From an uncultured Chloroflexia bacterium (GTDB lineage Bacteria; Chloroflexota; Limnocylindria; QHBO01), in contig CAWHEV010000006.1 of assembly GCA_963828485.1 (NCBI GenBank), positions 53,592 through 117,591 on the forward strand: a stretch of 64,000 bases of DNA, in the 5' to 3' direction. The notes beneath the pieces are model-generated. The model had not been told where the DNA came from. It worked only from the letters and a program-made list of their open reading frames with translations, and ran no database searches. The position numbers were made by a program, and so were the translations under genes. How positions within the stretch are numbered: position 1 is the first letter of the stretch; every line of letters starts with the position of its first letter. This document shows positions 46,310 through 50,152 of this stretch, piece by piece.

Positions 46310-46936
46310 TCACCACGAGCGGTGGGTTCCCATCCCGGGGTGCACGGCCTCGTGCATTGCGGGGCCAGCCCCGTTGAGCTCGAAGCGATCGACCTGGAGG
46401 GTCCGGATGTCAAGGGCAAGCGCGTCGTGGACGTCATGGCCGAGAAGCAGGCCGTGGAGCTGCTGGAGGAACGTCTGATGCGCGACGAGGATCACCGCCG
46501 GTCCTGGAACCGCGAGGAGGACCTCGAGTGCCCTTTCGGCACGCGACCGGACCTCCTCGAACGACTCCCCACCGGGGGGATTCAGCGAGTGCCTGATGCC
46601 GCCCCTCTCGATGTAGGTGATCCGATCGGCGTAGGTGGCAACCTCTTCCGGGGGGATCCCCTCGAGGACGCCGTAGCTCCGCTCGACGCACAGCTCGCTG
46701 GTCACGATCGCGCCGTCGTCGACGGTGGTGACGATCGCGGCAGTCTCCCGCGCACGGAGCATCGGCGAGCTGGCGACCGTGTCGGCGCTGAGGGGCCCGA
46801 GCAGCTCGCGCAGCTCCCGTGCCAGAGCCCGTCCGGCATCCGAGAGTGGCTCGTCGAGCCGGCCGCTGATGATCTGGGAGGCGTTGTGGGCCGTCGTCGA
46901 GTGGCGGATGGTCGTGATCGTTCGAGCGGCCGTCAT
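46310..46936 (-). CDS. Histidine phosphatase (PGM-like) family protein
   Basis: IRHS, SSPMLRARETA, PGGES, VAHQ; ATG overlaps the enolase-like stop. Confidence 0.85.
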   Translation of the reverse strand: MTAARTITTIRHSTTAHNASQIISGRLDEPLSDAGRALARELRELLGPLSADTVASSPMLRARETAAIVTTVDDGAIVTSELCVERSYGVLEGIPPEEVATYADRITYIERGGIRHSLNPPGGESFEEVRSRAERALEVLLAVPGPAVILVAHQTFLQQLHGLLLGHDVHDALALDIRTLQVDRFELNGAGPAMHEAVHPGMGTHRSW

Positions 46937-48091
46937 GCGCTCGCTCCGCGCAGCAGCGCGTTGGTCCGCATCACCGAGCTGAAGTCCGAGAACGGGCCGA
47001 TCTTGATGTAGTCGGCGCCGAGGTCGGTCGACAGGTGAATCAGGAACGGGGCGTCCGTCTCGATGGACCGGTGCGAGGCGGCGATGGAGAGCCCCGCCGC
47101 CCGCGCAAGCTCTGCGAATCGCAGCGGTGCCCGTCACCGTCCCGTTCTGGTCCGGCTTGACCAGGACGCCGTCCACGAGGTGCGACTTCGCCGCCAGCTC
47201 GGCGGGCTGCACCGACGTCAGGTTGTCGCCATAGAGATGGGAACGCTCCGGCCGGCGCCGATGGAGATCCGCCCACGAAGCGACGTCGGTTTCGGCGAAC
47301 GGGTCCTCGAGGATCTCGAGGTCGAAGCGGTCCATGAGGCGCAGCCACTCTTCCACGAGTGCCCCGGGCTCGAGCCGAGTTCCGCTCACCGAGAGCTCGT
47401 ACTGATCGTTGACGAACCAGTCGCCGGCACTCGCATCGGCCATCAACCCGAACTGTTCCGAGAGGCCCGTGTCCGCGAGCAGCCTCTCCAACAGCGCGAA
47501 CCCGGCGAGGTTCGGATCGCGCCCGAGATCGTGGACACGATTCCCTCCGACCGTGGTCGTGGGCAGCTCGGCCAGAGCGCCTTTCGCCTCGCCGAGGATC
47601 TGGACATACCCCGCGACCGACGCCGCCAGGTCGTCGGACCGGGCGACGAGCAGGAACTCGCTGCAGTCGGAGACGATGGGGTTCGTGTACGCGTGCAGGC
47701 CGCCATTGAGGACGTTGAACAGGATGCGCGGGGTGCGGCCGAGGACGACGGGTCGCGTCGCTTCGTAGAAGGCGCTCGACATGGCATAGGTGGCGGCCGC
47801 GCCCCATTCGGCGCGCCCTTCGAGCAGCAGTGCATCGAGTTCCGCCTGGTCGAGCTCGACTCCCTCGACTTCTCGTGCGATTGCCTTCAGGACCTCGTCC
47901 GGCGCCGACCGGCCGCCTGTCTCGCGGTCCTCGTAGATGCTTGGCGTCTCACCACGGGGTGATGCCCCACGTCCCGTCCGTCCGTCCGCCAGCGTAACGG
48001 TGAACTCGACGGTCCAATCCAGGTGCGTGTTCAGCACCTGCCGTCCCGAGACCCCGGCGATCAGGGCCTTCTCGAGAGCCACGTCAACCAT
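46933..48091 (-). CDS. Divergent enolase-like protein, apparent +1 frameshift at 47126-47127
   Basis: NGGLH, SEF, ADAS, EDP, GDNL, VKPDQNG; after removing one base SHRS and YIKIG follow in frame; 1159 nt = 1158+1; GGAGG SD. Confidence 0.8.
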
Positions 48092-48199
48092 GTCCCCTCC
48101 GTGGTCTTCGATGAGTGCAGAGAAAAAGCGGACCCTAGAATACGGGTGCCTGCAAGGGTCACCGCCCGACCCGAGCCAAGCGACGAAGGAGGGAGTTCG

Positions 48200-50152
48200 A
48201 TGCACCTGTTCGCCCTTGGCGTGGGCCTCGATCCGTCCGGGATGGATCGACTCGCCGATGAGCTGCACCGCACGGCCTCGCTCTACCCTCAGCTGGACCA
48301 CGACGCAGCGTGGCAGCGGCGGTTGCCGAACGGAGTCTTCGTTGGGGGCGTGGCGAGCCCGAGCGCGGTGGCCGCGCCCCGTGTCTACGTCCACGCCGCC
48401 GAGCGCGAGATCGTGTTCTACGACGGGCTCCCGATCGACGCCTCGCCTGGCGGCATCCGCGGCCACGTCGCTGACGAGCTGGCGAGGTCCTGGGACGAGC
48501 TGATTCCACGACTCGAAGGCCGATTCGGCATCATCCGCGCCTCCCTGGACGGCTCGCGCGTCTCGCTCATCAACGACGCGTTCGGAGCCATGCAGCTGTA
48601 CGTGGCCGAGCCTGGCGGCGCGACCATCGTCTCCAACAGCGCCGGTCTCGTGGCGCGAGCCATCGACGCGCGGGAGCTCGATCCTCTGGGTGTGAGCACC
48701 TTCCTCGCCATCGACTGGGTCGGGGCCGACCGGACCCTCCGGGCTGGAGTTCGGGTCCTCCCCGGAGCCCAGGACTGGCAATGGACCAGCGGCGGTGGAT
48801 GGACCCGCAGGCGCTACTGGCACTATTCCGATGGCGAGCCGCCGACGAGGCGTGTCGACGACGCCTACGTGGACGAGATGACCGACGCTCTCGGCCGGTT
48901 CGTCACAGGGGCGGCCGCCATCAACGGGACGATCAACTCGCCGCTCACGGGCGGCAAGGACTCCCGCATGCTCGCTGCGATCCTGATGTCCACGGGCATC
49001 CCGGTGCAGTACTGGACCAAGGGGCTGCCTGAGAGCCTCGACGTCCAGATCGCACTGGAGATCGCCCGGCAGCACGGGCTTCAGCATCGGCTATCGGGGC
49101 GTCCCACCGAGCCACCGGGGCACGAGGCGAAGCCGGTGGCGGAGGACTGGGAGTCGCTGACATCGCAGTTCGTGTCGCAGAACGACGGCCTCCCGAGCCT
49201 CCACCTCGTCGGGAACATCCAGGGCCAGCCGGACCGGGTCGATCATCTCGCGGTCACCCTGTCGGCCATGTGCGCCGAGTCGACTCGCCGCGCGACCGCG
49301 CAGACGTATCTCGATGCGCCGGGAGCCTCGCTCGAGCGCGCCGAGCGCTACATCCCCTACGCGTGGCTGGGCATCCCGCGCGGGCTCGTGAAGGGGGAGG
49401 CCTTCCGCCTGGCTCGCGATCACCTGCGCGATCTGGTCCAGCGCCACGCAGACGAGGGCGTGTCCCTGAAGAACCTTTCGAACGTCGTGTACCTCGACGA
49501 ACGCTGTCGTCGGTGGGCGCCCAACAATCCAAGGGAGCTCGCACAGACCGAGGACAAGGTGCTTCCCTTCCTCACCCGGCCGTACCTCGAGGCAGCGCTG
49601 CGCAGCGATCCCGAGGATCGCGCGTCGCACCAGGTCCACCGGCGCGTGATCCGGAGGCTCGTCCCCGAGCTCGAGCACGAGCCGCGGCTGGACAAGCCGT
49701 GGTTCACCGAACCGGAAGAGCTCGGCACGAAGCGCAAGGTGACGAACGACGTCATGTCCCGCCTGCCCTACACGCTCCGGCGTGGGATCGTCGCCACCCG
49801 CGACCGGATCCGACCTCCGCGGCCCACGTGGGAGCGATGGACGGCATACGACGAGGCGAGCTGGCTGGAGCCGAACCTCGGCTGGGCGCGCGACGTGGCG
49901 CTCTCGTCGCCCAGCTCGAGGCTCTGGGACTACATCGATCGCCCCCACCTCGAGCGGCTGCTGAACCCCGCGACCCACGCCTCGGAGCGCCGGGTCCATC
50001 AGCTCGCCCTGTTTGCCTCGCTCACGATCTTTGCGTACGAGGATTTCGAGCGCCGCCTCCGCGCCGGGCAGCCATCAATGGCCGCACCGGGCGAAGACGC
50101 GACTGCTCATCGGGCCGCCGACGCATCTCCTCCGAGCGAGCCCGACAGGTAG
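48200..50152 (+). CDS. Asparagine synthetase-like ATP-dependent amide ligase
   Basis: Ntn-like N-domain ([10 protein letters not shown]) without Cys2; PP-loop [10 protein letters not shown]; PFLTRP; AGGAGG SD. Confidence 0.75.

Follow-up and report, generated by a model that had tools for sequence, protein, structure and literature searches.

PhpG and PhpH of phosphinothricin tripeptide biosynthesis are paralogues of two consecutive glycolytic enzyme families that were recruited as a pair, and ComA and ComB are the phosphosulfolactate synthase and the 2-phosphosulfolactate phosphatase of coenzyme M biosynthesis. To our knowledge, members of the enolase subgroup within the enolase superfamily are regarded as sharing essentially one function. 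The subject of this work is a three-gene block in a 64,000-nt stretch of DNA from an uncultured Chloroflexia bacterium (contig CAWHEV010000006.1), hereafter the window, in whose positions the coordinates are given. The block, at 46310-50152, consists of an enolase-like gene and a His-phosphatase gene that diverge from a gene for an Asn-synthetase-like ligase. A comparable logic has been described for the capsule of Campylobacter jejuni, where a TupA-like ATP-grasp enzyme couples glucuronate to a small unit that carries a phosphate, which a phosphatase takes off afterwards; in the HS:2 glucuronamide pathway, these are the amidoligase Cj1438 and the phosphatase Cj1435 (PMC11800379). Surface nonulosonic acids are also known to bear N-glyceroyl and di-O-methylglyceroyl groups in amide linkage, for which no genes had been identified by 2017 (PMC5378307).

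The reading proposed here, to which we assign a probability of about one half, is that the enolase-like enzyme and the His-phosphatase, together with an adjacent ATP-dependent carboxylate-amine ligase, would decorate a surface glycan with a unit derived from a 2-phospho-C3-acid, such as phosphoenolpyruvate (PEP) or 2-phosphoglycerate (2-PG), and that the two enzymes constitute a conserved cassette which may move between lineages. This proposal draws on family membership, fold, residue pattern, pairing, co-evolution, gene neighbourhoods and the gain or loss of the block, all of which were observed or computed. An orthologous His-phosphatase gene lies directly downstream of the enolase-like gene, on the same strand and abutting or overlapping it, in 24 of 25 loci from about nine phyla; they include Chloroflexota, Actinomycetota, Bacillota, Bacteroidota, Nitrospirota, Planctomycetota, Acidobacteriota and the methanogenic archaeon Methanoregula. 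The pairwise identities of the two proteins are correlated (r=0.90, Mantel 0/5000; r=0.81 for distant loci alone), and the two appear to form a tight, co-evolving pair across phyla. A first-pass annotation of this DNA had named conservation of the three-gene neighbourhood as a check; no third gene beyond this pair is common to all loci.

Ligase genes recur beside the pair. Asn-synthetase-like genes were found within two genes of it in the window and its metagenome relatives L003 and L004, in L129 and L130, in L012 (three copies) and in the Methanoregula locus L016; at the same distance, TupA-like ATP-grasp genes occur in L008, Geothrix L086 and L019, and RimK-like ATP-grasp genes in L010 (two copies), L014, L018 and L132. 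A weak PP-loop candidate lies near the pair in L131. The Asn-synthetase-like neighbours that were checked, namely those of the window, L012 (all three) and L016, have no Cys1 and keep the PP-loop. Since three non-homologous types of ligase adjoin the same pair, a functional link between the pair and amide ligation is suggested. At L019, the TupA-like ATP-grasp region occupies residues 461-682 of a 716-aa protein that is encoded divergently from the pair (7606-9753, minus strand), and a 1621-aa paralogue is encoded beside it (2737-7602, minus strand). Its architecture resembles that of Cj1438, which is likewise about 700 aa long.

Genes for surface glycans likewise surround the pair in several lineages. 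They include GT4, Wzy_C, Wzt ABC, Bac_transf and DegT genes in L129; GT4, Wzy_C, dTDP-sugar isomerase and sugar C-methyltransferase genes in L131; and flippase, Wzy_C, GT4 and PGA_cap genes in both L018 and L132. Furthermore, a flippase gene adjoins the pair in L015 and a Wzz-type tyrosine kinase gene in L042. Modification of a polymer, one of the two options that had been considered at first for this module, fits such Wzy/Wzx/Wzt clusters around the homologues.

In the window, where the GC content around the block is 70%, the features under discussion are arranged as follows.

46936..46310, minus strand: His-phosphatase gene (branch 1), 208 aa, PF00300
47128..48091, minus strand: enolase-like gene, 5' part, about 322 codons, Enolase_N and Enolase_C in the translation
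47126..47127, minus strand: site of the frameshift, with CC in place of the single C of four homologues (DNA alignment)
46933..47125, minus strand: enolase-like gene, 3' part, 63 codons and TGA in the +1 frame, Enolase_C match of 8e-05
48092..48199, no strand: divergent intergenic region of 108 nt, with both Shine-Dalgarno (SD) sites and TAGAAT
48200..50152, plus strand: gene for the ligase with predicted Asn-synthetase fold, 650 aa (TIGR01536 4e-10; AlphaFold model)
46310..50152, no strand: three-gene indel block, between the LLM oxidoreductase gene and trpB2
45427-46272, minus strand: F420-type LLM oxidoreductase gene, one flank of the block
50107-51444, minus strand: trpB2, the other flank of the block

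The enolase-like gene starts with the ATG at 48091-48089 of the minus strand and stops with the TGA at 46935-46933, which overlaps the ATG of the phosphatase gene in an ATGA (46936-46933). Its SD site, GGAGG (complement of 48096-48100), stands 4 nt ahead of the start codon, and that of the ligase gene, AAGGAGG at 48186-48192, stands 7 nt ahead. The TAGAAT motif at 48136-48141 is kept in L003 and L004, as are the CCGTATTCTAG core and the length of the spacer (108-112 nt). A consensus scan of 45300-50400 found no complete sigma-70 promoter with a -35 element and no terminator. The coupling, the divergent spacer, both SD sites and the TAGAAT had all been listed in the first-pass annotation and were found again, and its three family assignments (enolase-like, His-phosphatase and Asn-synthetase-like) were borne out by Pfam, NCBIfam and, for the ligase, the predicted fold. 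The ligase gene and trpB2, which converge, have 46 nt in common at their 3' ends (50107-50152), and the final 22 residues of the ligase show no conservation and are modelled with low confidence.

The three genes behave as one accessory unit, gained or lost together in the lineage of the window, because genomes of the same family have none of the three at a site that is filled in L003 and L004. In G160, G293 and G009, all of the same family, the flanking order thioredoxin-MFS-ProRS-(YCII)-LLM ... TrpB2 is retained; the gap between the LLM gene and trpB2 measures 0.5-1.7 kb, contains a small unrelated open reading frame (ORF), and no remnant of the three genes was detected in it. In L003 and L004, the block stands at the same LLM/trpB2 site, and its treatment as a single module is therefore upheld at this level. 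The ORF of the empty site encodes about 95 aa on the strand of trpB2 and is absent from the window (L126 7720-8005, L127 7325-7610, L128 7285-7565).

The enolase-like protein of the window gives weak Pfam matches to Enolase_C (3e-10) and Enolase_N, and its TIGR01060 scores of 57.6 and 53.8 bits lie below the equivalog cut-off of 300 bits. Because a canonical eno gene (657 bits) is present on another contig (C9) of the same genome, the gene of the block is a paralogue and not the housekeeping enolase. Intact homologues of 380-400 aa occur in Streptomyces, Geothrix, Chloroflexota, Coriobacteriia and many metagenomes. The model of one such homologue, P0003, has a mean predicted local distance difference test score (pLDDT) of 88.1 and takes the enolase fold, with Foldseek template-modelling (TM) scores of 0.82-0.85 against enolases (E 4e-28), and a profile of the family searched against the PDB matched enolases only. 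In a maximum-likelihood tree, the 31 family members are monophyletic (100/100) and stand outside the clade of the 18 canonical enolases, separated from it by a branch of about 2.8 changes per site; the internal branching of the family departs from the species tree. The earlier claim of a non-glycolytic paralogue is supported by the canonical eno elsewhere in the genome.

The residues of the family were compared in 116 members, with the numbering of canonical enolase. D246, E295, D296, D320, K345, R374, S375, K396 and E168 are invariant in all 116, and H159 and H373 nearly so; in the alignment, the Mg ligands D246/E295/D320 as well as K345 and K396 are also present in the window protein. By contrast with this retained set, the position of E211 (GDEGG motif) holds Asn in 105 members, Arg in five, His in four, Ser in one and Gln in one, and never Glu or Asp, a placement on which the MAFFT and HMMER alignments agree. 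D321 is replaced by Asn in 114 of the 116, and Q167 is variable. The machinery for the metal, the carbanion and the phosphate is thus kept, and the pocket for the C3-OH is rebuilt. In enolase, E211 is the general acid that protonates the leaving hydroxide, and the E211Q enzyme suffers a loss of activity of about 10^5-fold. Since no member has Glu or Asp at this position, efficient dehydration of 2-PG by the enolase-like enzyme is unlikely, which makes the dehydratase role given to it in the first-pass annotation doubtful. Three Streptomyces sequences (P0019, P0021 and P0027) form a subgroup with Ala at H373, and P0014, the copy at L005, retains His.

The family is very rare. Of 401 genomes sampled from the phylum of the window, one has it, namely the genome of the window itself; among these 401, none of the three same-genus and none of the 13 same-family genomes carries it. 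In the class of an Anaerolineales carrier, two of 301 genomes have the family, the 300 that were sampled having given one new locus, and some 24 clusters represent it among 1.84 billion representative proteins. A profile scan of genome contigs was dominated by canonical enolases, with only about 15 of 80 loci being family members. Two long proteins, P0184 and P0211, were considered as enolase-like fusions and rejected, both being canonical enolases. In two metagenome-assembled genomes, G402 (L008) and G405 (L019), the enolase-like gene was found and no canonical enolase was matched (family profile, E<=1e-40), which may reflect incompleteness, a split gene or reliance on the paralogue.

The partner of this protein belongs clearly to the His-phosphatases, with 114.9 bits against PF00300 (His_Phos_1; gathering cut-off 21.7, 4.9e-33). 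Its catalytic core, comprising R11-H12 (RHS), the second Arg (R61), the Glu proton donor (E85) and the second His (H153), is at least 90% conserved in 21 orthologues and intact in the window. None of the named equivalogs searched (CobC, dPGM, GpmB, PspA, SixA and others) was reached, the best being TIGR03162 with 75.6 bits against a cut-off of 162.9. The closest solved relatives are the phosphatases TIGAR, PspA, PhoE and GpgP (glucosyl-3-phosphoglycerate phosphatase), and not mutases.

The 650-aa protein gives a weak Asn-synthase signal in NCBIfam and stays below the Pfam cut-offs for Asn_synthase (13.6 vs 21 bits) and GATase_7 (12.2 vs 25 bits). Its AlphaFold model, with a pLDDT of 90.6 and a predicted TM score of 0.91, has the two-domain AsnB fold, and Foldseek returned TsnB9, carbapenam synthetase (CarA), beta-lactam synthetase and AsnB over about 600 columns, with E values from 6e-16 to 2e-11. 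The PP-loop LTGGKDS aligns with the LSGGLDS of CarA and ASNS, and G252 and D254 are invariant in the ligase family. The protein starts with MHLF and has no N-terminal Cys, position 2 being unconserved in the family. Because of the AsnB-like fold with its PP-loop, and of the missing Cys, it is predicted to be an ATP-dependent, glutamine-independent ligase. The family to which it belongs is narrow (41 matches) and adjoins the pair only in the subclade of the window (L003, L004, L129 and L130). More distant members lie in polysaccharide clusters that have no enolase-like gene, and are usually followed by a methyltransferase gene. The ATP-dependent amide-forming step ascribed to the module from the outset is thus retained as a link that recurs with three types of ligase, and not as a property of this particular family. 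The methyltransferase is of class I and S-adenosylmethionine-dependent, and its gene overlaps the stop of the ligase-family gene with its start in L089 (8914-9639), L090 (8872-9612), L129 (9852-10580) and L091 (from 18073); the copy in the window is not followed by one.

The enolase-like gene of the window, which had been taken as intact, is divided between two frames: codons 1 to about 322 read in frame with the phosphatase gene, and the last 63 fall in the next frame. The window reads GGCACCGCTG, and in the DNA alignment L003, L004, L129 and L130 read GGCA-CGCTG, so that the window has one extra C (47126-47127), which is the only internal indel of the gene relative to L003. The 3' part covers profile positions 222-276 of Enolase_C and holds SHRSIET and YIKIGP, the equivalents of H373/R374/S375 and K396. 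Sequence identity between the window protein and its intact 385-aa homologues P0002 and P0003 is 82%. In the source annotation, 46310-48091 of the minus strand is given as a 593-aa protein with Enolase_C and His_Phos_1 (P0001), a call that arises because the first frame stays open in DNA of such high GC content; this enolase-phosphatase fusion is a frameshift artefact and not a natural fusion. The pgk gene of the same assembly (G000:C9 ~38600-41100, locus L001), which lies directly upstream of the canonical enolase gene, is also frameshifted, with about 270 codons followed by about 130 in the next frame, and there the open frame merges PGK and enolase into an 837-aa ORF. Split trpB2, His-phosphatase, ProRS and MFS genes occur in the sister assemblies (L004 4156-5470; L003 4584-5036, 6273-6434 and 7596-9330), consistent with frequent indel errors in these long-read assemblies. 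A scan for frame switches in third-position GC (GC3), meant to give the indel rate of the assembly, did not recover even the known frameshift. Given the four homologues without the extra base, the frameshifted pgk and the split genes of the sister assemblies, the extra C is probably an assembly error rather than a real inactivation.

In the decoration pathway proposed here, for which we infer the substrate, the order of the steps and the glycan target, the enolase-like enzyme would bind a 2-phospho-carboxylate through the Mg ligands, R374/S375/H159 and K396, and K345 would make or protonate the C2 carbanion. As the acid that expels hydroxide, E211, is absent, the enzyme may handle a C3 substituent other than OH; it could add a different group to PEP or eliminate it, or it could only epimerise or enolise its substrate. 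The ligase would then form an amide via an acyl-adenylate or, in the other lineages, via an acyl-phosphate, and the His-phosphatase would remove the 2-phosphate before or after ligation. A more specific version, which we regard as quite doubtful at present, makes the enolase-like enzyme a lyase that adds or removes a nucleophile other than water at C3 of PEP: ammonia or an amine would give a unit of the 2-phospho-isoserine type, other nucleophiles other units, and the product, once whichever ATP-dependent ligase lies beside the pair has coupled it through an amide bond to an amino sugar or a uronic acid of a surface glycan, would be dephosphorylated by the dedicated His-phosphatase. It would represent a new, horizontally mobile pathway of glycan decoration.

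Several observations weigh against a glycan-decorating cassette. It was by their enolase-like gene that the loci were collected, and the number of ligase genes beside the pair has no formal background expectation to be set against. Roughly a third to a half of the loci have no recognisable ligase nearby, depending on how weak hits and loci of one lineage are counted; these are L005, L007, L011, L013, L017/L087, L088/L042 and the short contigs L006 and L015. The ligase families vary with lineage, which leaves room for different acceptors or even for a different chemistry. The enolase-like copy of the window, being frameshifted, may be inactive, and no glycan genes adjoin the block there. The one exception to the pairing is the Streptomyces copy that was examined (L005, P0014), which stands alone, without a phosphatase. 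That locus (Streptomyces albireticuli CP021744.1, ~8.10-8.12 Mb) lies near the end of the chromosome among transposase and hypothetical genes.

These points bear on four other explanations. If the frameshift is real, the enolase-like gene would be a pseudogene and the block a decaying remnant without current function in this genome, which is possible, if somewhat unlikely. The extra base breaks the frame 63 codons from the end, so that H373/R374/S375 and K396 are lost from the product, and the block is absent from all sampled genomes of the same genus and family; however, no further lesion is present, neither part contains a stop, the catalytic residues are intact, the identity to L003 is 82% with no second internal indel, and the frameshift in an essential gene such as pgk, with the split genes of the sister assemblies, suggests long-read indel errors. 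It is unlikely, in our view, that the cassette makes a soluble small molecule instead (a secondary metabolite, a compatible solute or a cofactor precursor) and that glycan genes are merely neighbours where accessory genes accumulate. L003, L004 and L130 resemble the window in having no adjoining glycan genes, the neighbours are mixed in Geothrix L086, Bacteroidales L087 and Methanoregula L016, and enzymes of the ATP-grasp and AsnB folds also build small molecules, TsnB9, CarA and beta-lactam synthetase being the top fold matches of the ligase. Yet in at least six loci, which belong to different lineages, complete Wzy/Wzx/Wzt clusters enclose the pair, the ligase family of the window is otherwise found in glycan clusters, and no non-ribosomal peptide synthetase, polyketide synthase or transporter recurs as a partner among the loci.

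A bypass of lower glycolysis, in which a phosphoglycerate mutase-like enzyme and an enolase isozyme would connect 3-phosphoglycerate, 2-PG and PEP beside an unrelated ligase, is improbable. The two families are indeed those of consecutive glycolytic steps, and the residues that bind metal and phosphate are retained, as are K345 and K396; against this stand the loss of E211 in every member and of D321 in most, a phosphatase that is nearest to phosphatases and below all dPGM cut-offs, the canonical eno, the great rarity of the family, and recurrent ligase neighbours that a bypass would leave unexplained. A phosphonate-type pathway is more improbable still. By analogy with PhpG and PhpH, a comparison which had been drawn for PhpH in the first-pass annotation, a mutase-like and an enolase-like enzyme would make an analogue of carboxy-phosphonoenolpyruvate, and the same two protein families have been recruited there as a pair. 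No PEP-mutase or other phosphonate gene was found in any Pfam-annotated neighbourhood, and none for PEP-mutase beside any locus, and the analogy is not supported; the PEP_mutase-superfamily (PF13714) matches of the genome lie on other contigs only, and since this family matches 11 of 14 control genomes it is uninformative. Taken as a whole, the first-pass annotation is partly supported: its gene layout is confirmed apart from the frameshift, the module and the idea of polymer modification hold, its dehydratase is in doubt, and the ligase that it names belongs to a lineage-restricted family.

The significance of the cassette lies partly in its enzymology. A clade that keeps the metal and carbanion machinery of enolase, loses the hydroxide-expelling acid throughout, and is tied to a phosphatase and to amide ligases points to new chemistry on a scaffold that has been studied in great depth, and were the lyase version true, it would mark the first change of function within the enolase subgroup proper. 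Our search of the literature found no description of an enolase-like/His-phosphatase pairing with amide ligases or polysaccharide clusters. Such a pathway could help to explain amide-linked, non-sugar decorations on the surface glycans of bacteria and archaea, for example the N-glyceroyl group, and decorations of this kind shape antigenicity, phage recognition and the properties of biofilms. Geothrix limicola is a named species that carries the cassette and may be culturable, in which case the idea is directly testable. The block also illustrates that, where the GC content is high, one erroneous base in an assembly can put a false 593-aa fusion protein into public databases.

Compared with canonical enolase (EC 4.2.1.11), the enolase-like family shares the two-domain fold, with an N-terminal capping domain and a modified TIM barrel, at the TM scores given above, together with D246/E295/D320, K345, K396, H159, E168 and the H373/R374/S375 phosphate site. 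It differs in length (about 385-400 aa against about 430 aa), in the replacement of E211 and D321, mostly by Asn, in the variable Q167 and in the rebuilt S39 loop (GETxS). Furthermore, its clade is long-branched, scores 58 against 300 bits for TIGR01060, co-exists with true eno and is paired with a phosphatase. The ligase of the window shares with beta-lactam synthetase, carbapenam synthetase and TsnB9 the two-domain AsnB fold, the PP-loop and the missing N-terminal Cys. Its identity to them is only 13-16%, it has no Pfam match over the cut-off, and its family is tied to glycan clusters and a downstream methyltransferase instead of antibiotic clusters.

Among the pathways, PhpG/PhpH differs from the present pair in its phosphonate context, in having a mutase-like rather than a phosphatase-like partner, and in its genomic setting. 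With ComA/ComB there is a possible, formal analogy, in that a non-water nucleophile is placed at C3 of PEP and the 2-phosphate is then removed; the folds and families are unrelated, and there is no sign of sulfite chemistry or coenzyme M genes at the loci studied here. The HS:2 pathway of C. jejuni makes its unit by pyridoxal phosphate-dependent enzymes and uses a phosphatase of the haloacid dehalogenase type, where an enolase-like enzyme and a His-phosphatase are found here, and the ligase of the window has the AsnB fold, with no TupA-like ATP-grasp protein in the window. Nevertheless, the two would follow the same logic: a small phosphorylated unit supplied by central metabolism, its ATP-dependent ligation to a glycan by an amide bond, a dephosphorylation and, around several homologues of the pair but not in the window, a cluster for surface glycans. 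TupA-like genes stand beside the pair in L008, L086 and L019, and in the L019 protein the ATP-grasp region is C-terminal, as it is in Cj1438.

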